From Candidatus Yonathbacteria bacterium (GTDB lineage Bacteria; Patescibacteriota; Minisyncoccia; Phycocordibacterales; UBA1550), in assembly GCA_003483855.1 (NCBI GenBank), contig DMXP01000005.1:29202-93201 (forward strand): DNA of 64,000 bases, given 5' to 3'. Below are positions 3,471 through 48,241 of the stretch, piece after piece. A program made the translations under genes and the position numbers. Position 1 is the stretch's first letter. Every line of letters starts with the position of its first letter. The notes under the pieces were generated by a model. The model made no database searches, was not told the origin of the DNA, and saw only the letters and a list, made by a program, of their open reading frames with translations.

Positions 3471-6400
3471 TTATTTTTTCTTATTGAGCGAAATGTCGAG
3501 TGAGAGCCCGCGTAGATAATTTAGAAGCACATTGAACGACTCGGGGATATTTGTGCTTGTGATGTCGTTGCCTTTCACAATAGCGTCAAATGCTTCCGAA
3601 CGACCTGAAATATCGTCTGATTTAATAGTGAGCATTTCACGAAGGACATGCGATGCGCCGTAACCTTCCAGAGCCCACACTTCCATTTCTCCAAAACGCT
3701 GACCTCCACCTTGCGCCTTTCCGCCAAGTGGCTGTTGCGTGATGAGAGAGTACGGCCCGATTGAACGCATGTGGATCTTGTCTTCCACCATGTGGTTTAG
3801 TTTCAAGATGTACATATAACCAACCGCAATATCCTGATCAAACGAGTCTCCAGTGCGTCCGTCAAAGAGTGGCATCTTGCCGTCCTCGCGGTAGCCTGCC
3901 TTCACGAGCTCGCCCTTAATTTCCTCAACTGTTGCTCCCATAAACGGAGGTACGATTGCCTGATAGTTGAGCGTGTGCGCGGCTAGACCCAAGTGAAGCT
4001 CAAGAATTTGTCCCAAGTTCATACGAGAAGGCACGCCGAGCGGAGTAAGCACAACATCAATAGGTGTACCGTCTGCCATGTATGGCATATCCTCCTCAGG
4101 AAGGATTACAGAAATAACACCCTTGTTACCGTGACGTCCCGCAAGCTTGTCGCCCACAGAAATGTTACGCACCTGAGCAACTTCAATGTGAATTTTCTTG
4201 ATGATACCGCTGTCTAGCGCATCGCCCTTTTCGCGCGAGAATACTTTCACACCAATCACGCGTCCACGCTTGCCGTGATCCATGCGAAGCGAAGTGTCTT
4301 TCACGTCGCGAGCCTTGTCTCCGAAAATACTGCGAAGGAGTCGCTCCTCAGGGGTCAATTCTGTCTCACCCTTTGGCGTAATCTTTCCAACCAAAATATC
4401 TCCTGGGTGCACCTCTGCGCCAATACGAATGATGCCGTCTTCGTCCAAGTCTTTGAGCTTGAGCTCACCAACGTTTGGAATATCGTGAGTTGTAACCTCG
4501 GGCCCGAGCTTTGTGTCACGCACATTCACAACAAACTCGTCCATGTGAATAGAAGTAAACTTGCTGTCCTTTACGAGACGCTCCGAAAGAATGATCGCGT
4601 CTTCGTAGTTGGAACCTGCCCATGACATAAACGCAACGAGCGCGTTTTGCCCGATAGCAATCTGACCATTGTCTGAAGACGAAGTGTCAGCAAGTACAGC
4701 TCCCTTCTTCACCTTGTCGCCCACGTTTACAATAGGACGCTGATGGAATGCTGTGAATCCGTTTGTTCGTGAGAATGTTACAAGCTTGTATGAATGTTCC
4801 TTCCCATCTCCACCCTTCAAAACAATTTTTCTTGAATCCGAATGAGTGACAGTGCCATCCACATCCGCAATAACGAGACGACCTGTGTCGCGAGCAGCCA
4901 TTCCCTCCATACCTGTTGCAACCAGCGGAGCCTCTGGCACAACTACTGGGATTGCCTGCTTCTGCATGTTTGAACCCATGAGCGCGCGGTTTGCGTTGTC
5001 GTGTTCCAAAAATGGAATCATGGATGTAGCTACCGAGTATGCTTGGTTTGCTGCGATGTCCATGTAGTGCACATCCGCGCGGTCTACAAGCTCTGGGTGT
5101 CCAGCGCGACGAACCTCAACCTTCTCTTCAACAATGCTGTCACCATCCATTTTCAAAGACGCATGCGCGATGTTGTATTGCTCTTCTTCTAACGCATCCA
5201 TGTACACGATTTCTTTTGTGGTCTTGCCGTTCTTCACCTTTACATAAGGCGTTTCAATCATTCCAAAGTCATTGATGCGCGCATAGCAAGAGAGACGGAG
5301 AATAAGACCGATGTTTGGACCTTCTGGAGTGTGGATAGGGCAAAGGCGTCCGTAGTGCGATGTGTGCACGTCGCGAACTTCAATACCAGCGCGTTCGCGA
5401 GTGAGGCCACCTGGCCCAAGCGCTGAAAATGTGCGGAGAAGCTCAATTTCAGAAAGCACGTTGTACTGACTCATAAACTGAGAGAGCTGGTTTGTCGCAA
5501 AGAATTCCTTTAGTCGCGCCTGAAGCGGGCGAGGAGAAATAAATTGCACAGGCATTGTGGCGTCGGTATCAATTGTGGACATTCTGTCCTGAATATTACG
5601 CTTCATCTGTGTCATACCCACGCGAATCTTTTGCTGGAGCATTTCACCTACAGAGCGAATGCGACGGCTTCCGAGGTGGTCAATATCGTCTGGAAGAGCG
5701 CGAGGGTCTGCGTTTAGCTTTACGATGTGCGAAACGATTGTTGCAACATCACTTGCATCAATAGTGCGTCTTGCAATATCATCTTTATCAAGTCCTTTTC
5801 CAAAACGCTTGTTAAACTTAAAGCGTCCTACTTCTGATAGGTCATACTTCTCCTTTGCAAAAATAGAGTTCACGAAACCGCGAGCATTTTCTGCTGTTGC
5901 AAGGTCGCCATCGCGAAGCTTCTTGTGAATTTCAATAAATGATTCGTCAGGAGTAAGAGCGAGGTCTTTTGCGAGAGTTGCTTCAATCACCTTCTTTACC
6001 GCTTCGTCTTTCTTTGCAAATGCTTTTAGAATTGCTTCATTGTTTTCCAAACCAAGAGCGCGAAGAAGCACGGTTACAGGGAACTTGCGCTTTTTATCAA
6101 TACGCACGTACACCGCTCCGTCTGGATCGGACTCCACCTCTACCCATGCGCCACGGCCTGGGATAATTTTTGCGCCGAAGTAACGCTTGCCCTTGAGCTC
6201 GTCTACGGTGAATGACACACCGAATGAACGAGAAATCTGTGGCACAACCACGCGTTCAACCCCGTTCACGATAAATGTACCGTGCGAGGTCATCATAGGA
6301 AAATCCGCCATAAAGATTTCCTGCTCTTTCTCACTCTTAAACGTTTTGTTTATAAGTTTTACGCGCGCTTTGAGAGGCGCTTCGTAAGAGAGGTTGTTTT

Positions 6401-6623
6401 CTTTTGCAAAATACTCGTCATACTTTGGCGCCGAGAGTTCAATGCCAACGAATTCAAGTTCAAACTTTTTTTCCGAGTAATCTTTAATCGGAGAAAATTC
6501 TTTAAATGCTTCCTTGAGTCCTACTTCGAGAAGCCATTTGTATGACTTCAAGTGTGTCTCTACGAGGTTCGGGAGTTCGATTTGCGGTTTCTTGTACCGC
6601 GCAAAATATTTCTGTTCTCGCAT
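3471..6623 (-). CDS. rpoB: DNA-directed RNA polymerase subunit beta
   Basis: 1050-aa ORF with rpoB hallmarks throughout (MREQKYFARYKKPQIELPNLVETHLKSY..., rifampicin-region and C-terminal GGQRFGEMEVWALEGYGA). The rpoB-rpoC order is conserved. Confidence 0.95.
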   Translation of the reverse strand: MREQKYFARYKKPQIELPNLVETHLKSYKWLLEVGLKEAFKEFSPIKDYSEKKFELEFVGIELSAPKYDEYFAKENNLSYEAPLKARVKLINKTFKSEKEQEIFMADFPMMTSHGTFIVNGVERVVVPQISRSFGVSFTVDELKGKRYFGAKIIPGRGAWVEVESDPDGAVYVRIDKKRKFPVTVLLRALGLENNEAILKAFAKKDEAVKKVIEATLAKDLALTPDESFIEIHKKLRDGDLATAENARGFVNSIFAKEKYDLSEVGRFKFNKRFGKGLDKDDIARRTIDASDVATIVSHIVKLNADPRALPDDIDHLGSRRIRSVGEMLQQKIRVGMTQMKRNIQDRMSTIDTDATMPVQFISPRPLQARLKEFFATNQLSQFMSQYNVLSEIELLRTFSALGPGGLTRERAGIEVRDVHTSHYGRLCPIHTPEGPNIGLILRLSCYARINDFGMIETPYVKVKNGKTTKEIVYMDALEEEQYNIAHASLKMDGDSIVEEKVEVRRAGHPELVDRADVHYMDIAANQAYSVATSMIPFLEHDNANRALMGSNMQKQAIPVVVPEAPLVATGMEGMAARDTGRLVIADVDGTVTHSDSRKIVLKGGDGKEHSYKLVTFSRTNGFTAFHQRPIVNVGDKVKKGAVLADTSSSDNGQIAIGQNALVAFMSWAGSNYEDAIILSERLVKDSKFTSIHMDEFVVNVRDTKLGPEVTTHDIPNVGELKLKDLDEDGIIRIGAEVHPGDILVGKITPKGETELTPEERLLRSIFGDKARDVKDTSLRMDHGKRGRVIGVKVFSREKGDALDSGIIKKIHIEVAQVRNISVGDKLAGRHGNKGVISVILPEEDMPYMADGTPIDVVLTPLGVPSRMNLGQILELHLGLAAHTLNYQAIVPPFMGATVEEIKGELVKAGYREDGKMPLFDGRTGDSFDQDIAVGYMYILKLNHMVEDKIHMRSIGPYSLITQQPLGGKAQGGGQRFGEMEVWALEGYGASHVLREMLTIKSDDISGRSEAFDAIVKGNDITSTNIPESFNVLLNYLRGLSLDISLNKKK

Positions 6624-6820: not shown

Positions 6821-6849
6821 AGTATACCAGACTGTAAATTGGTGTCAAT
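6821..6849 (-). promoter_or_regulatory. candidate sigma70-type promoter for rpoBC
   Basis: On the minus strand: TTGACA (rc of 6844-6849), 17-nt spacer, TATACT (rc of 6821-6826). It lies about 195 nt upstream of the rpoB ATG and just downstream of the hairpin at 6855-6881. Confidence 0.4.
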
Positions 6850-6854
6850 GCGTA

Positions 6855-6881
6855 AATTATCCTTACACAGCAAGGATAATT
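6855..6881 (-). terminator. hairpin downstream of the Mrr-cat operon (possible terminator, weak U-tract)
   Basis: Stem aattatcctt / aaggataatt with a 7-nt loop. No clear U-run follows. Confidence 0.3.
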
Positions 6882-6889
6882 CTGAATTT

Positions 6890-7771
6890 CTACTGCCAGG
6901 CTTCATGAAGATGCTCCGCAAGCTTACGCTTCAAGAGACCTCCGTCAATCAATTCCACTGAGTTTGACTTCGCCAAAGCTATCGCTCCTTGTGTAAAATA
7001 TGAAGTCGTTATTACAACTGCTCTTGTACACCCATAATGTACTCGCCCCGCCACCGCTTGCTGAACTGCTTTGTTATCGACAGGATCCTGATAACACTTC
7101 GCTTGAATAAGTATGCTCTCACCATTTTTATTCGCAATAACATCTGCGCCTTGATCACCAGAGCCACCTACTCTTTTACTTGCGTAACCCATCGCGCTAT
7201 AAAGTCGGGCGACAAGATTTTCAAATTCAATTCCACTTTTGCTCAACTCGCTCATGTTGTGCACTGCTTTTGTTCCAATACTTTCATTTAAATATCTATT
7301 CTCTTTTTTATCAATAAAATGTCTCAAGATTACAGAAAGTTCACCATAATCTTTTGTTGATATGGTGATATTTTTTTTATTAGCATTATCACGAAAGTCA
7401 TCGAGACGCTTCCACTCAAACTTGTACCCCCGATATTCCCAAGGTTTAATTTTGCCCTCCTTTCCAAACTGGTCAATGAAGCTGTTTACACTACTCTCAA
7501 AACCAGTATTTGCTATCTGCTCAAGGATACTATCAAGATGACGTTTCGTATTTTCCCTTCTTTTAAATATGTAAAACATATAGGCACCGACAGCTAGGAC
7601 AAGTACCGCAAGTGCAGGAAAAACGTAATGATTCATCTCAAACCAAAAACGATTAGTATCCACGTAGTATACGAATATGAGGTACGCGATACCAAACACA
7701 AATAGACCTGCAACCCCTCTCAAAAAACCATCTTCTTCATTTTCTTTTCTTCTGTAGCGTCTTTTATACAT
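6890..7771 (-). CDS. membrane-anchored restriction-endonuclease-like (Mrr-cat, PD-(D/E)xK) domain protein
   Basis: Two N-terminal TM helices (GVAGLFVFGIAYLIFVYYV and FPALAVLVLAVGAYMFYIF). The C-terminus FENLVARLYSAMGYASKRVGGSGDQGADVIANKNGESILIQAKCYQDPVDNKAVQQAVAGRVHYGCTRAVVITTSYFTQGAIALAKSNSVELIDG matches the Mrr N-terminal catalytic-domain pattern (GDGGID...QCK...ITTS.F). Confidence 0.7.
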   Translation of the reverse strand: MYKRRYRRKENEEDGFLRGVAGLFVFGIAYLIFVYYVDTNRFWFEMNHYVFPALAVLVLAVGAYMFYIFKRRENTKRHLDSILEQIANTGFESSVNSFIDQFGKEGKIKPWEYRGYKFEWKRLDDFRDNANKKNITISTKDYGELSVILRHFIDKKENRYLNESIGTKAVHNMSELSKSGIEFENLVARLYSAMGYASKRVGGSGDQGADVIANKNGESILIQAKCYQDPVDNKAVQQAVAGRVHYGCTRAVVITTSYFTQGAIALAKSNSVELIDGGLLKRKLAEHLHEAWQ

Positions 7772-7836
7772 ATTAGAAACAGTATACCAAATTCAAAACA
7801 ATAATTCCTAGTTCACATAGGCGAGCCCTATGTAAA

Positions 7837-8439
7837 CTACTTCAACTTCCCCTTTCGCCACTTCTCAATCTTTTTGATACCGAGCTTTTTTCCGAGGCAA
7901 TTAACCCATGCCTCGTCAGTCCCCCGAGACGCATAGTGTCTAATGTTGACAACCTTACCGCACCTAATTCTATCCCTAAAGTGCTCATTAAAACATCTCC
8001 ACAAAAAAGATGTGTCTGCACCTAAGGTAATAAATACTGTATCCTTGCCGATTTTAACATCCATCATTTCTTTTTCAAATAAATCTGCGTGTTTTTTAAT
8101 CTTTTCAGGATGCTTATGAAAATAAGATTCTACTTCTCGTGCATTTGCATTCGCATGATACTTAAAAATATCAGTCAGGTAGGAGCCCCTTAGTTTAGTA
8201 TCATTATTGCACGCATACATTAACTTCCTATCATGTTGCCCACCGTGGAAATTTGACCATGATGGTTTCTTCAAGTCTTTTGATATATTTAAACCAACAA
8301 ACACATATCTCGTATTCAGTTGAGCAACACTTTCATCAATAACAGATGTATCATTCTGGTCATTTTCATCCCAAATCGCCCAACTGGAACATGGGCCGTA
8401 TTCCATGCTTAATTTTTCATATTCATTAGTGGTATACAT
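7837..8439 (-). CDS. hypothetical protein with weak UDG-superfamily-like motifs
   Basis: 200 aa. Its start codon abuts the stop of the upstream gene (TAA-ATG junction at 8437-8442), which suggests translational coupling. YVFVGLNISKD and VVNIRHYASRG loosely resemble UDG-fold motif A (G-x-N-P-G) and motif B (H-P-S). No confident family assignment. Confidence 0.5.
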   Translation of the reverse strand: MYTTNEYEKLSMEYGPCSSWAIWDENDQNDTSVIDESVAQLNTRYVFVGLNISKDLKKPSWSNFHGGQHDRKLMYACNNDTKLRGSYLTDIFKYHANANAREVESYFHKHPEKIKKHADLFEKEMMDVKIGKDTVFITLGADTSFLWRCFNEHFRDRIRCGKVVNIRHYASRGTDEAWVNCLGKKLGIKKIEKWRKGKLK

Positions 8440-9183
8440 TTAATCAATAACATACCCATCTACTTTTTGAGAGTGGAACAGTGTTGTATTTGAAACAACA
8501 GTGACTCCATTATCCCACGCCTCAACACTATAGCCATGGGTGAACGGGGTAAGCAAGACATCATCTGGGATATCCACGAAATGCTCTGTTGAGTAACCAG
8601 AAGACGAGGGGAAGAAAGTGACTGAATTAGGACCATAAGTATACAAAACTAGCCGTGAATTAGCTGGAATATTTGTTCTCCATGAGAAACGACCTGAGTT
8701 ATTAATATTAGTTATACCTCTCAGTAAAATTGACAGTGCAGGGACATCCTCTTGAGATATCTGAGTTTGTACAGGTTGAACTAAAACGGATGGGATAATT
8801 ACTGCTTCCTTTATCCATCGAACAACATTTCCTCTTGCATCAATCTCGGCAACAGCACCATTTTGAAATGTTACGATACTAGTCTTTGACTCGTCCTGTT
8901 TTTGTGCTACCTGTGGTTCGGGTGTAACTTGCTTTTTAGGTGATACAACCACAGAGTTTTTACTTTTTTTTGTAGCTACTTCTTTTTGTTGAGAAACTTC
9001 CCCCGAACTTGTTGCAGTTGTTGTCGCTTTTTTATTTTCAAAATTTACATCATGAGTTTGCTCAACTCTCACTTCTGCTGGTCTACTAAAAATCTTCCAA
9101 GAAAACGGATTCCACCATGAAGCCAGCGCAATCTGTGGCACAATAAGCGTAGCTACAGCCAAAGAGATCAAGATTTTTTTCAT
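8440..9183 (-). CDS. secreted hypothetical protein (signal peptide)
   Basis: N-terminus MKKILISLAVATLIVPQIALASWW is a typical signal peptide. The rest shows no recognisable domain. Confidence 0.55.
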   Translation of the reverse strand: MKKILISLAVATLIVPQIALASWWNPFSWKIFSRPAEVRVEQTHDVNFENKKATTTATSSGEVSQQKEVATKKSKNSVVVSPKKQVTPEPQVAQKQDESKTSIVTFQNGAVAEIDARGNVVRWIKEAVIIPSVLVQPVQTQISQEDVPALSILLRGITNINNSGRFSWRTNIPANSRLVLYTYGPNSVTFFPSSSGYSTEHFVDIPDDVLLTPFTHGYSVEAWDNGVTVVSNTTLFHSQKVDGYVID

Positions 9184-9221
9184 ACCAATATGGTACTCCT
9201 CTTCCCTCAGATAAGCAACAT

Positions 9222-9635
9222 TTATTCCTCTGACTTCTTCACTTCTCTTTCCTTACTTCGTGTAGTTGAACCATACATAAAAACTCCTACAAGTGATGCA
9301 AGAGTACCCACGCCGATTATACCGCCAGCAATGGCATTCCCATAGATAGAGATGATTGCGGAAACAACAAGCCCAGCAACAGCAATAACAAAACCAAGAA
9401 TTTGACCCCATTTTGAACGAGCAATGTCGGAACTAATTACCTTTTGCTCAAGATCTTTTCTGTGCGCAGATTGGTCTTCTGCCATCTTGATTATTCTTTC
9501 AGCCGAACCAGGAACTACTTCTTCAAACTTGCGCAGAATGTCTGGATGAGGAAGCGGTCCAGAAAACGACTGCACAGAGTGCTGTTGAACTACTACACCA
9601 TTCTGATTATGCTGTCTTTGTAAGCCCTTGCTCAT
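9222..9635 (-). CDS. DUF2335-like membrane protein
   Basis: PHPDILRKFEEVVPGSAERIIKMAEDQSAHRKDLEQK followed by two TM helices resembles the DUF2335 predicted-membrane-protein pattern. It overlaps the upstream small gene by 29 nt. Confidence 0.55.
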   Translation of the reverse strand: MSKGLQRQHNQNGVVVQQHSVQSFSGPLPHPDILRKFEEVVPGSAERIIKMAEDQSAHRKDLEQKVISSDIARSKWGQILGFVIAVAGLVVSAIISIYGNAIAGGIIGVGTLASLVGVFMYGSTTRSKEREVKKSEE

Positions 9636-9828
9636 AATTTTTTATAGAAAACTTTAAGTCCTCGCCAACTGCACCCCAATCACTCTTTAACGCTTTTATA
9701 TCAGCCTCCTGTTCTGTTTCTGAAATATTGTAATCCTGTAGTGTCGCTCCTAAATCAAGAATGCGCGACATACCCTCAAGAAATGATGGTTCTGCAAAAA
9801 GCCTGCTAGAAGAATAGATATTTTTCAT
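9607..9828 (-). CDS. small hypothetical protein (74 aa)
   Basis: The ORF 9607..9918 is trimmed to the internal Met (MKNIYSSSRLFAEPSF...). The upstream extension overlaps the trmD terminator hairpin. First gene of a 5-gene minus-strand operon. Confidence 0.45.
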   Translation of the reverse strand: MKNIYSSSRLFAEPSFLEGMSRILDLGATLQDYNISETEQEADIKALKSDWGAVGEDLKFSIKNYEQGLTKTA

Positions 9829-9868
9829 ATTGAAAGTATAACAAATCGAGTTTATATATACAAATGCA

Positions 9869-9896
9869 GAAACCGCAACACGGGGTTGCGGTTTCG
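9869..9896 (-). terminator. hairpin terminator downstream of trmD
   Basis: gaaaccgcaac-acgggg-gttgcggtttc, an 11-bp perfect stem. On the minus strand it is followed by TGCATTTGTATATATA. Confidence 0.45.
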
Positions 9897-10103
9897 CGTC
9901 CTGCCACCGAAGCGACAAGAGGTATGAATTAAAGATACCTTACCTCTATGCAAATTGCAAGCAGTTATCCACAGCCTCAAAACCTACCTCATCTTCCCTC
10001 TCCTCCACTCTTGAATTAGCAAATTCACTTACGTGTCATATCTTCTTATGGTCGCCCGACGAAATTTCCTTTTAGAAATTTTTTCGGGTAAACCACCCGA
10101 GGA

Positions 10104-10763
10104 CTACCTTAGTTTACCTTCTCTCCATTTTTCTATCGCAGAATGGTCGCCGGACAGTAATACCTTTGGGACTCGGTACTTTTTGCCTTTCCATTCTAGG
10201 ACTTCGGGGCGAGTGTACATCTCGGGGGAAGCAGTGCGTTCCTCCTCTAGCGATTCCATTTTCCCGAGCACGCCTTCAATCTGGCGCGCACAAGCGTCTA
10301 CGACAACCATTGCAGGCACTTCCCCGCCTGTGAGCACAAATGGCCCCACGGAAACCTCCTCCGCTTTGAAAATCTTTTTCACTCGCGCGTCAATACCTTC
10401 GTAGCGACCTGCTATCAAAATAATGTCTGTATATTTGGTAACAAGAGCTTTTGCGTACACGTTTGTAAATTGCTTGCCTCCTGGCGCAAACAAAATTACC
10501 TTCACTTTAGTATTCTTTTTGCGCGCAATACCTCTTGCAATCTTTTCAAGTGTGCGAAGCATCGGCTCTGCTGTCATTACCATCCCAGGACCTCCCGCGT
10601 ATGGGCGGTCATCCACCTTTCCCCATTTGTTACCGGCAAGCTCACGTGGGTCATAATACGAAACAGAGATGAGCTTCCCTTCCTGTGCACGACCAAGAAT
10701 AGACGCGTCCATATATGGACGTACAGCCTCTGGGAAAATAGTGACAATATGAAAACGAATCAT
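10104..10763 (-). CDS. trmD: tRNA (guanine37-N1)-methyltransferase
   Basis: MIRFHIVTIFPEAVRPYMDASILGRAQEGKLISVSYYDPRE...LTGGEVPAMVVVDACARQIEGVLG is TrmD (SPOUT). The start is trimmed to the Met at 10763. The ORF-track N-terminal extension is discounted. Confidence 0.9.
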   Translation of the reverse strand: MIRFHIVTIFPEAVRPYMDASILGRAQEGKLISVSYYDPRELAGNKWGKVDDRPYAGGPGMVMTAEPMLRTLEKIARGIARKKNTKVKVILFAPGGKQFTNVYAKALVTKYTDIILIAGRYEGIDARVKKIFKAEEVSVGPFVLTGGEVPAMVVVDACARQIEGVLGKMESLEEERTASPEMYTRPEVLEWKGKKYRVPKVLLSGDHSAIEKWREGKLR

Positions 10764-10766
10764 GAG

Positions 10767-10806
10767 GGGGTAGAATATCGAATATTGAATGTCGAAGTTG
10801 GAATGG
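10767..10806 (-). promoter_or_regulatory. array of NNNATTC heptamers / GAATAT-n3-ATATTC palindrome immediately upstream of trmD
   Basis: Coding-strand reading: cccattc caacttc gacattc aatattc gatattc tacc, then ccctc ATG. Related arrays occur at 16337-16372, 50976-50990, 51908-51927 and 62208-62263. Confidence 0.35.
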
Positions 10807-10842
10807 GCCCAACTCATTACATTCGTTCAATACTTAATACTA

Positions 10843-13896: not shown

Positions 13897-14760
13897 TTAA
13901 AATTCCTGACAGACTTGATCAACTTCTTCTACTACTCTTCCAATCTGTTCATCCGTAAAGCCAATTGATTTCAATGGAGCTGGATTATTCTTTAAATCGC
14001 GACACATCACAATTCCTTGTTCAAGTAAATTATTTTTGTCACTCTGACTAAGTGTAGAAAGAAATGTAAGCGGATGCACTCCCGTTTCCAAGATTAAATC
14101 CTGCAAATTGCCTTTTTCAGGATAGTCCCAGCCAATCACAGTGAGCCCAGAGCAATTCGCATATTGAATTGCATCACTCGTGAGCTTAGTGTTTGTAATG
14201 AGCCACCCCTCGTGAACTTTCTTTACCTCTCCTTCGTGTCTTTTATGCGCTTCATCGTGAGCTTTCTGCAAATCCATAAATCGCGCACGGACATAAAGCG
14301 CGACCTTCACGTCTGTTTTTATACCTTGCTGATTGTGGAACTTGCACTCTGCAAAAATATGCCTGTCGCCTTTTTCCATAAGCACGTCCACCTCGTGATC
14401 AACACAAAATCCCTGTAGAATTACACCTGTCTCTGCAGTGTAACCCTTTCCACGCAAAACTTCCGCGACAAATTTTTCAAATGGAAATCCGCTAGGCCCG
14501 AGCTCTAGCACTGCTTTCCTTAGCGAATAACGAATAGCGGCAGGATATTTTTTTTTCTTGAGAATAGAGTACGCGTGCTTGTAAATCTGCGAAGTCTTCA
14601 TCCCCTCGTGAAGCTCTGGGAGAATGTGCTCAACTATACGCTCTATAGTTTCATCGTCTGCACCAGAACGCGTAAGCGAACGACGAAGTTTATTAAGAGA
14701 AAATCGCTCACGCTCGCCAGTGCTTTTTATGACCCACACGTCATCTTGCTCTTTGTTCAT
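13897..14760 (-). CDS. ATP-cone domain fused to restriction-endonuclease-like PD-(D/E)xK domain protein
   Basis: N-terminus VWVIKSTGERERFSLNKLRRSLTRSGADDETIERIVEHI is an ATP-cone. The middle FEKFVAEVLRGKGYTAETGVILQGFCVDHEVDVLMEKGDRHIFAECKFHN is a D..EVD...ECK nuclease core. Start trimmed to MNKEQDD. Confidence 0.7.
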   Translation of the reverse strand: MNKEQDDVWVIKSTGERERFSLNKLRRSLTRSGADDETIERIVEHILPELHEGMKTSQIYKHAYSILKKKKYPAAIRYSLRKAVLELGPSGFPFEKFVAEVLRGKGYTAETGVILQGFCVDHEVDVLMEKGDRHIFAECKFHNQQGIKTDVKVALYVRARFMDLQKAHDEAHKRHEGEVKKVHEGWLITNTKLTSDAIQYANCSGLTVIGWDYPEKGNLQDLILETGVHPLTFLSTLSQSDKNNLLEQGIVMCRDLKNNPAPLKSIGFTDEQIGRVVEEVDQVCQEF

Positions 14761-14786
14761 ATTCCTTAGTTTAACACAATGAATAG

Positions 14787-14824
14787 GCAAAAGAAAAAGG
14801 TCGAGCTAAGATACTAGCTCGACC
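14787..14824 (-). terminator. rho-independent terminator
   Basis: Perfect 10-bp stem ggtcgagcta / tagctcgacc followed on the minus strand by tttttcttttgc. It lies about 320 nt downstream of the mnmA stop. Confidence 0.5.
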
Positions 14825-47195: not shown

Positions 47196-47840
47196 TCATG
47201 CGCATTTATCAGAATACGTATCGATGTTTGCGCAAGCAATCATCTTTGCATCATACCATGACGTGTAAAGATATCCTGCTTCAAAAGGTTTGGTTCCTTT
47301 TTCAAAACCGTTTATGAGCTCTTTCACCTGATCAATAGTTGATATTCCTTCCATTTGAATACCATGCGCATATGAAGAACTAAAGTAGTCCCTGAGCTCG
47401 TCGTTACATTCGTAAAGTATCGATTCGTCCTCCTCTATGAGTGGTGCGATAAGACCTGCCAAAAAATGTTCTGGGGCTTTTTTCTTTCCAAATATTTGCT
47501 CAGCGAGCGACGCGTACACTGATGCAAGAATGTAACAATCTATTGCATGATTCAATATCTTGCGCTCCTCGTGCAGTGGCGCATATTCAACACGATTAAT
47601 TTCATACTCAACCTTACTGAATCCAAGTATATTTATGATACCATGGACACTCGTAGGTCTTCTGAATGAACCGTGACATATACACATATGATTTGTCATG
47701 CGCAAGAGTCTCACAACAAGGTAAGGTTGAAAGACCAAAAGTTTTGCAATGTCTCCAAACGAAGAATCCTTGTTTGCAAGCAAGTTAGAGAATTTCTTGA
47801 TGAACCCTTGTGTCACATACACCTTTTCAAATTCTTCCAT
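47196..47840 (-). CDS. HDOD-domain (HD-related output domain) signalling protein
   Basis: FGDIAKLLVFQPYLVVRLLRMTNHMCICHGSFRRPTSVHGIINILGFSKVEYEINRV fits the HDOD pattern. Start trimmed to MEEFEKVY. Confidence 0.65.
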   Translation of the reverse strand: MEEFEKVYVTQGFIKKFSNLLANKDSSFGDIAKLLVFQPYLVVRLLRMTNHMCICHGSFRRPTSVHGIINILGFSKVEYEINRVEYAPLHEERKILNHAIDCYILASVYASLAEQIFGKKKAPEHFLAGLIAPLIEEDESILYECNDELRDYFSSSYAHGIQMEGISTIDQVKELINGFEKGTKPFEAGYLYTSWYDAKMIACANIDTYSDKCA

Positions 47841-48042
47841 TCTACCCTCCTGTGTATTATTTTGTGATGTAAATGTACTGGTGCACATAATATCATAAAA
47901 TATGGGATTATGTCAAATAGCAATTTTTTAGAATTAAAAATCTAGTAGAACCTTTAACGGATTCATAATTTTGTACACCTGTAAATTAGCAAATTTTAAT
48001 CTTGGCAAAAGGATTCTCTTTTTCGAATCCTTCCCAACACTA

Positions 48043-48079
48043 CAAAAGCCAAAAGCCTCCAACTCTCTCGAGTTGAGGG
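48043..48079 (-). terminator. terminator after tRNA-Tyr
   Basis: cctccaactc-tctc-gagttgagg hairpin. The minus strand continues with cttttggcttttg. Confidence 0.5.
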
Positions 48080-48090
48080 CTAGGTTTTTG

Positions 48091-48173
48091 TGCGCCGGGA
48101 AAGATTCGAACTTTCGAAGACCGAAGTCAGGAGATTTACAGTCTCCCCTCGTTGACCACTTGAGTACCGACGC
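48091..48173 (-). tRNA. tRNA-Tyr (anticodon GTA)
   Basis: GCGTCGG...GGAGA-CTGTAAA-TCTCC, a long variable arm TGACTTCGGTC, TTCGA-AAGTTCGAATC, CCGGCGC-A. Confidence 0.88.
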
Positions 48174-48241
48174 ATTTTAACAAGCGCTTTTAAAGCGTTT
48201 GTTAACTCTATCACTTTTTTTCTCTCACTTCAACCTCATTT

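Follow-up and report, generated by a model that had tools for sequence, protein, structure and literature searches.

We analysed a 64,000-nucleotide stretch of a Candidatus Yonathbacteria bacterium genome (GCA_003483855.1, contig DMXP01000005.1, positions 29,202 to 93,201; hereafter the window), in which five small genes, g1 to g5, lie between the core genes trmD and rpoB. The observed comparative and structural patterns indicate that this trmD-rpoB slot is probably a strain-variable accessory hotspot holding three independent units (g1-g2, g3-g4 and g5), with g4 and g5 as stand-alone genes of the defence type. The product of g4 has the predicted fold of the uracil-DNA glycosylase (UDG) superfamily, and that of g5 is a membrane-anchored, Mrr-type nuclease by domain and fold. 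An earlier sequence-only reading of the same DNA had interpreted the five genes as a single operon, possibly a module for defence or DNA uptake. The genes and their two core-gene flanks are as follows (aa, amino acids).

trmD, 10817..10104, minus strand: upstream core-gene flank of the array
g1, 9828..9607, minus strand: 73 aa, acidic and soluble; partner of g2
g2, 9635..9222, minus strand: 137 aa, DUF2335 membrane protein with two C-terminal transmembrane (TM) segments
g3, 9183..8440, minus strand: 247 aa, secreted or surface-located; signal peptide, low-complexity linker and C-terminal domain
g4, 8439..7837, minus strand: 200 aa, cytoplasmic; candidate DNA glycosylase of UDG-superfamily fold
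g5, 7771..6890, minus strand: 293 aa, membrane-anchored Mrr-type PD-(D/E)xK nuclease by domain and fold
rpoB, 6623..3471, minus strand: downstream core-gene flank of the array

The coordinates and spacings agree exactly with the earlier description of five tightly packed genes on one strand. g1 and g2 overlap by 29 nt, g2 and g3 are separated by 38 nt, g3 and g4 abut (TAA-ATG), and a 65-nt gap lies between g4 and g5. The array is also AT-rich, with a GC content of 0.375-0.43 per gene versus 0.47-0.49 in the flanking genes, and 0.29-0.38 versus 0.42-0.50 at third codon positions. Of the eight 600-bp windows with the lowest GC in the 64 kb, six fall within g1-g5. An identical copy of the five genes was found on a 198-kb groundwater-metagenome contig, and the full set is confined to several contigs of the same population.

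Mosaic Distribution of the Array Among Relatives

We compared the locus with 80 species-representative rpoB loci, with 80 metagenome loci of g5 homologues, and with the neighbourhoods of g3, g4 and g5 homologues (individual loci are cited as L004 and so on). On 62 of the 80 species-representative contigs trmD lies directly upstream of rpoB, usually with a KH-domain gene before trmD. The distance between the two genes in these 62 relatives ranges from 129 to 8373 bp, being at most 600 bp in 25, 600-1500 bp in 27 and more than 1500 bp in 10. Expanded slots carry PIF1-type helicases, MsrA/MsrB, an S24 peptidase, IS200, an ABC transporter and TspO, and some slot proteins also match PD-T4-3, AbiLi and AriA/GajA. 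Far from being universally conserved beside rpoB, g3, g4 and g5 were not found in the slot of any of the 80 representatives. The array is accessory and no standard neighbour of rpoB, as had been proposed. The accompanying idea that it occupies the place where rplJ-rplL normally precede rpoB did not hold for this lineage. Both genes are missing from the window and, in every relative, from the region upstream of rpoB (one locus has them downstream of rpoC). The local norm is KH-trmD-rpoB, and the classical rplJL-rpoBC linkage is thus not the baseline here.

Several other loci carry parts of the array. L093 (approximately 89% DNA identity) retains trmD with the g1 region (window 9981..9634), and again the whole sequence from position 7834 of the window onward (hairpin, g5 and rpoB), but g2-g3-g4 are swapped for 1.0 kb of unrelated open reading frames (ORFs; 65, 175 and 76 aa). 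The left breakpoint falls exactly at the ATG of g2 and the right one inside the hairpin that follows g4. In L261, g1 (93% identity), g2 (88%) and g5 (69%) are present and g3-g4 are missing, the homology with the window ending 7 nt into g3. L009 (rpoB 94%) has g5 alone beside rpoB, together with a 27-aa remnant of the g3 signal peptide. The slot of L004 (rpoB 90%) lacks g5 and holds a g4 homologue, PaaX_M, a RelB/YafQ toxin-antitoxin pair, an S49 peptidase, a 188-aa protein and an rve transposase, while that of L015 is empty, with a gap of 293 bp. Elsewhere, L176 carries a g3-g4 pair (61% and 62%), L079 has the overlapping g1-g2 pair alone, after rpoD, and g4 occurs alone in unrelated islands (L005-L008, L259 and L260). 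Because L093, L261, L009, L004, L176 and L079 carry only subsets, and L015 none of the genes, g1-g5 do not appear to form one co-functional system, and the single-module interpretation fails on the synteny of the trmD-rpoB interval.

The trmD-rpoB slot resembles defence islands and core-gene-flanked hotspots in being fixed between two core genes, variable, AT-rich and strain-specific. Like them, it holds toxin-antitoxin pairs, transposases and defence-type genes. It differs from them in its small size (0.1-8 kb), in that much of its cargo in relatives is not defence-related, and in having no recombinase or att (attachment) site tied to it in the window. Flanking direct or inverted repeats (att or attC-like) around the cargo amounted to short matches at chance level.

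Some smaller observations concern the same interval. The non-coding gap found in place of g3-g4 in L261 contains three copies of the repeat GGTACCTGACCCC (2418-2430, 2483-2495 and 2683-2695), which is also present in L094 at 72-84 (46 nt upstream of g5) and once in the trmD-rpoB slot of L013 (1461-1473). The repeat is absent from the window and from all others of the 261 loci compared, and may represent a small repeat element or a junction marker of the hotspot. A RelB-like antitoxin of L004 (2532-2807) is 92% identical to a slot ORF of L013 (875-1195), so the same toxin-antitoxin cassette circulates in the hotspot among relatives. L002 (contig SRR2177952_239506, 4448 bp; 10 samples) ends just past g5, where the g5-rpoB spacer begins, which would fit assemblies being broken at the hotspot by strain heterogeneity. 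In L261 (3852-6996), rpoB is split into two ORFs (255 and 802 aa), probably through an assembly-error frameshift rather than for any biological reason.

Candidate Transcription Signals Within and Around the Array

Candidate terminators and promoters were located at both ends of the array and between g4 and g5.

9866..9920, minus strand: two tandem hairpins 3' of trmD and 5' of g1, probable trmD terminators
9835..9864, minus strand: putative promoter read from the sequence, TTTGTA(9864..9859)-18-TATACT(9840..9835)
7809..7839, minus strand: 13-bp hairpin over the g4 stop codon, which probably acts as a terminator and marks the right-hand limit of the exchangeable cargo
7781..7789, minus strand: extended -10 box TGGTATACT, candidate own promoter of g5
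6854..6882, minus strand: hairpin 3' of g5 and 5' of the rpoB promoter, with a 13-bp stem in the centroid fold
6821..6848, minus strand: promoter-like site of rpoB, TTGACA-16-(TG)TATACT, with 11 of 12 consensus matches and the TG

The outer boundaries were much as the sequence-only reading had placed them. The two trmD hairpins would provide the terminator reported upstream of g1; they are strong (RNA fold -33.7 kcal/mol, z = -4.87, with none of 200 shuffles as stable) and are kept in L093. The TTTGTA-18-TATACT element noted at the first ATG is likewise present, its -10 box ending 6 nt 5' of the g1 ATG, and was not picked up as a site in a stricter promoter scan. At the other end, the array does stop just before the hairpin (whole-segment z only -1.4) and the promoter-like site (6848..6821) of rpoB, and the latter is kept in L004, L013, L014 and L015.

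The interior of the array tells against a single five-gene operon. An operon would be expected to lack internal terminator and promoter signals and to have genes that co-occur across genomes. Here, the hairpin at 7839..7809 (centroid -17.7 kcal/mol, z = -2.73), inside which homology with L093 restarts, and the -10 box TGGTATACT at 7789..7781 part g4 from g5, and one population has all five genes while relatives carry subsets. The box sits 9 nt 5' of the g5 ATG, is kept in L093 and recurs in the rpoB promoter (repeat D3). Promoter calls of this kind are only suggestive, because a window-wide consensus scan yielded 9 sites versus 9.3 expected, which is not above chance. In genomes as compact as these, close packing of genes is not in itself a sign of a functional operon.

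The -10-like boxes of g1 and g5 (regions 9835..9828 and 7781..7771) lie only 6 and 9 nt from the respective ATG, with no room for a Shine-Dalgarno sequence in the case of g1. These short distances suggest that the mRNAs of both genes may be leaderless or nearly so.

A Widespread Protein Family of Predicted UDG-Superfamily Fold

The earlier, tentative label of g4 as UDG-like was borne out at the level of fold. The predicted model has an alpha/beta/alpha fold with a parallel sheet, as in solved UDGs. G49-L50-N51 follows the strand 45-51, and N51 of this GLN motif does not vary in either of two sets of 28 and 46 sequences. After the strand 163-166 comes H168-Y169, with H168 conserved to at least 90%. 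GLN and HY are tentatively equated with the GINPG and HPSP motifs by position and by a weak hhalign alignment (1.6% probability). With 1297 representatives (approximately 1,300 clusters at 50% identity), the g4 family is large, and it has motifs of its own: SSWAIW, GLNxS, WSNFH, GSYLTDxFK and HY[SA]S. Its invariant W20, W23 and W61 have no namable counterpart in UDG families 2/3 (MUG/TDG and SMUG1/SMUG2).

In sequence searches, g4 itself has no Pfam match at E <= 1, PF03167 included. This model is weakly matched by five of 46 family members (best E 1.8e-4), so the link to UDG by sequence is only transitive. No match was obtained when the g4 profile was searched against all chains of the PDB, no family or system was assigned in PADLOC, NCBIfam or PHROGs, and no member of the family was found in IMG/VR viral contigs.

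An anti-phage function is established for stand-alone UDG-fold enzymes that resemble UDGs in fold only (PMC11078745; 10.1101/2025.10.29.685425; PMC13160076). Brig1 excises alpha-glucosyl-5-hydroxymethylcytosine (PMC11078745), Brig2 acts on phages with modified thymidines (10.1101/2025.10.29.685425), and Brig3 excises 5-hydroxymethylcytosine (PMC13160076). We liken g4 to these proteins by fold and description rather than by sequence comparison. The PDB searches with g4 returned no Brig structure. g4 differs from them in its own family motifs, in its Patescibacterium host and in that several of its homologues lie outside defence contexts. Some g4 homologues do have conflict-related neighbours. 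Those of L005 and L006 lie beside ABC-3C genes (DUF2326, MC6-8, CTD12), those of L007 and L008 between an AAA_15/21 ATPase, an SLFN-g3 helicase, a MazG-like gene and Cas12a, and that of L004 is in the mobile context described above, with its toxin-antitoxin pair and transposase.

g3-g4 would make up a unit consisting of a lineage-specific secreted protein and a cytoplasmic enzyme of a new UDG-superfamily family. By analogy with MUG and SMUG, g4 most likely acts by flipping a base out of the DNA helix and breaking its N-glycosidic bond, with the invariant Asn51 of motif A and His168 of motif B as the residues involved. By analogy with Brig1-3, its likely target would be a modified base in invading phage DNA, and excision would leave abasic sites that block replication. 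In our view g4 is therefore a candidate for a glycosylase of defence, and the chief alternative is ordinary repair.

A Predicted Membrane-Tethered Nuclease of the Mrr Type

The domain architecture proposed for g5, two TM helices and a middle domain joined to an Mrr-type PD-(D/E)xK nuclease, was upheld. Residues 179-281 match Mrr_cat (PF04471; E 2.9e-29, 101.9 bits versus a cut-off of 21), and TM segments at residues 16-34 and 50-68 form a predicted N-in/C-in two-helix anchor, which would place the nuclease domain in the cytoplasm. Between anchor and nuclease lies a conserved middle domain of approximately 100 residues. The C-terminal domain has a restriction-endonuclease-like fold with the D...(Q/E)xK signature, and its closest structural matches are restriction-type nucleases. 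Neither the fold nor the catalytic residues have been lost: all of 44 full-length homologues share E184, D206, D210, Q223 and K225. The family occurs in Patescibacteria, Spirochaetia and Methylomirabilis-type genomes. At 54 loci with full-length homologues, no neighbour family was found in more than three, the commonest being trmD.

g5 shares its C-terminal fold and D...(Q/E)xK signature with Mrr and other type IV nucleases (Mrr, MspJI, AspBHI; AF1548). Unlike in these enzymes, a membrane anchor and the middle domain replace the recognition domain, and there is no methyltransferase or other partner nearby. No Mrr_N winged helix, SRA or similar recognition domain was found by Pfam, the N-terminal 175 residues being made up of the two TM helices and the middle domain. 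In the absence of Mrr- or MspJI-type recognition domains, we did not file g5 as a type IV, modification-dependent enzyme (Mrr proper). Its matches in PADLOC are at the level of the domain (ZorD, mREase_IV, PDC-S02 and LmuA nuclease domains, with mREase_IV covering the nuclease domain only), and IMG/VR likewise gave matches in the nuclease domain only.

The nearest described counterpart is Epona, a single-gene cassette of the Vibrio cholerae chromosomal integron that combines two TM helices with Mrr_cat and protects E. coli from phage (10.1101/2024.07.02.601686). Compared by description, g5 and Epona both join the same elements in one protein and are carried as shuffled cassettes. g5 differs in its conserved 100-residue middle domain, which has not been described for Epona, and in its hosts, which are not Vibrio. 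With its own promoter-like signal and the hairpin that precedes it, g5 would be a stand-alone unit. Its helical hairpin would tether the protein to the membrane on the cytoplasmic side, where it most likely either cuts foreign DNA near the entry point or acts as a membrane-linked suicide effector, as proposed for Epona.

Other Mrr_cat proteins were encountered during these comparisons. In the IMG/VR contigs L177-L256, many proteins match only the Mrr_cat of g5 (residues approximately 177-290, 35-53% identity). Their genes often lie no more than a few kb from the end of the contig, which suggests prophage-borne, Mrr-type morons. L139 carries a 35%-identical g5 homologue downstream of trmD. In this distant relative, the gene immediately upstream of the homologue encodes a NERD-domain nuclease (E 2.7e-14; 7214-7933 and 8001-8741 for the two genes), another nuclease pairing at the same genomic position. 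Within the window, a second Mrr_cat protein of 297 aa lies 4 kb from the array (13897..14790, minus strand) and adjoins an MgtC-family gene. It contains an ATP-cone (E 1.3e-7), Mrr_cat (7.1e-6) and AF1548-like_C (9.8e-5). With 88% identity and an equal position in L009, this protein, unlike g5, looks like a stable gene of the lineage.

The g1-g2 Pair and g3

g1 and g2 appear to form a translationally coupled pair of the phage-moron type. The assignment of g2 to DUF2335 was secure (PF10097, E 1.9e-17, 63.3 bits versus a cut-off of 25). It also matches phrog_3996, annotated as "membrane protein, moron" (E 5.6e-38, residues 8-135), has tblastn matches in 24 phage records and gives a marginal PADLOC match to LeoBC (E 0.012). 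No match to g1 was found in Pfam, PADLOC or NCBIfam, and its match to phrog_27385 is weak (E 2.6e-4). The g1 homologue of L079, 41% identical, overlaps a DUF2335 gene as well, and in Streptococcus phage Javan433 a small gene overlaps a DUF2335 gene after holin-LytA, an arrangement like that of g1-g2. Compared with the 95%-identical g1 of L093, there are 10 synonymous and three non-synonymous codon differences. The unit would accordingly be of the kind carried by temperate phages as morons, a small acidic protein coupled to a DUF2335 membrane protein.

g3 appears to be a lineage-specific secreted protein. A hydrophobic N-terminal segment at residues 4-22, ending ALA-S, agrees with its earlier description as secreted. 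Searches of Pfam, PHROG, PADLOC and NCBIfam gave no match, and only 21 homologues were found, all in Yonath/Nomurabacteria-type contigs. One of them, of 386 aa (48%), lies in L173 (5775-11343) after an HTH_3 (XRE) gene and is followed by a 179-aa gene and a pair formed by an AAA ATPase and an S8 subtilase, another variable, conflict-like setting.

Weighing the Alternatives

A defence role for both g4 and g5 is plausible. What the analysis shows is how the genes are built, their folds and conserved catalytic residues, their mosaic distribution and the hotspot, while the glycosylase and nuclease activities, the substrates and the role in defence are inferred. As to the module for defence or DNA uptake put forward earlier, the possibility of defence stands for these two genes, the single module does not, and there is no sign of a part in DNA uptake, since competence genes are lacking and the predicted location of the g5 nuclease domain is the cytoplasm. 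A number of observations weigh against our interpretation. In other relatives the slot frequently carries metabolic or housekeeping genes, which means that the position itself is no sign of defence. A screen of g1-g5 with PADLOC-DB v2.0.0 returned no full defence system, nothing for g1, g3 or g4, and for g5 only the domain-level nuclease matches. The UDG assignment of g4 comes from a predicted model and distant similarity, with 8-18% identity to UDGs of families 2/3, a best Foldseek E of 8e-3 and no PF03167 match for g4 itself. The hhalign comparison of its profile with an approximate E. coli MUG sequence reached 1.6% probability despite the aligned GLN/GIN and was not used as homology evidence. 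Only two of six distinct g4 neighbourhoods examined outside this genome are clear defence islands, and those of L259 and L260 are mixed housekeeping settings, in which g4 could be a sporadic repair glycosylase. Finally, the hairpin after g4 has no clean U-tract, so some read-through from g4 to g5 could occur.

Part of this evidence favours a housekeeping explanation, which we consider unlikely: g4 would be an ordinary uracil or mismatch repair glycosylase, and g5 a membrane nuclease degrading imported or host DNA for nucleotide salvage. These reduced-genome bacteria need such salvage. The L259 and L260 homologues, the large size of the g4 family and the metabolic hotspot cargo would all fit, as would the constant rpoB-side position of g5 in L009, L093 and L261 and the trmD-linked homologue of L139. 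This explanation is harder to reconcile with the absence of g4 and g5 from the slot of all 80 species representatives and some close relatives, with their AT-rich composition, with the clear defence islands that hold some g4 homologues, and with a nuclease domain that is predicted to be cytoplasmic rather than extracellular and is structurally nearest to restriction-type enzymes. It is more improbable still that the whole 3 kb is the decayed remnant of one prophage or mobile element, with leftover morons that have no current role. Low GC, the membership of g2 in a moron family, the recurrence of the g1-g2 arrangement at a prophage end and the transposases in the same slot of relatives (rve in L004, IS200 in another) point that way. 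Against it, the interval has no integrase, att-like direct repeats or structural phage genes, all ORFs are intact, and synonymous changes exceed or about equal non-synonymous ones in g1 and g5 relative to close relatives. Moreover, g4 has no relatives in IMG/VR, the viral matches to g5 are confined to its nuclease domain, and the differing distributions of the units argue for separate acquisitions. Least probable of all, and indeed very improbable, is one co-transcribed, co-functional system for defence or DNA uptake in which the membrane and secreted proteins partner the nuclease and the glycosylase. Its appeal lies in the shared strand, the overlap, the very short gaps and abutting stop and start codons, the exact five-gene copies within one population and the poor U-tract after g4. 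Yet every unit is found without the others in close relatives and elsewhere, g5 has no conserved neighbour across 54 loci, a hairpin and a promoter-like signal precede it, and neither a PADLOC system nor uptake genes are present. The comparative data have largely refuted the one-system reading.

Another Low-GC Segment of the Window

Outside the array, the second lowest-GC patch of the window (approximately 47400..48200; 0.36-0.375 in 600-bp windows) contains a 230-aa ORF (47196..47888, minus strand) that lies between the tRNA-Tyr and tRNA-Trp genes. The patch may be another acquired segment.

Implications for Immunity in Patescibacteria

To our knowledge, little is known about immunity in Patescibacteria (Candidate Phyla Radiation, CPR), and hardly any of their phages have been characterised. 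The trmD-rpoB slot is a hotspot that is easy to locate and could be mined for accessory and defence genes in metagenomes of Paceibacteria, and we regard g4 and g5 as new variants of known defence-type enzymes. A further-reaching possibility, which we hold only tentatively and think rather doubtful, is that g4 founds a widespread and previously undescribed UDG-superfamily family of stand-alone anti-phage glycosylases with its own base specificity, and that g5 represents a conserved membrane-tethered Mrr family with a new middle sensor domain, attacking DNA at the envelope. If this were true, g4 would add another enzyme to the Brig type, and no defence glycosylase would have been recognised in Patescibacteria before it. 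The main interest lies in these two families: that of g4, which has no Pfam or defence-database model and lies beside Cas12a and ABC-3C genes in other phyla, as a concrete candidate for the growing class of anti-phage glycosylases and a possible reagent for recognising a new modified base, and that of g5 as a compact, widespread case of a membrane-tethered nuclease with a sensor-like domain.

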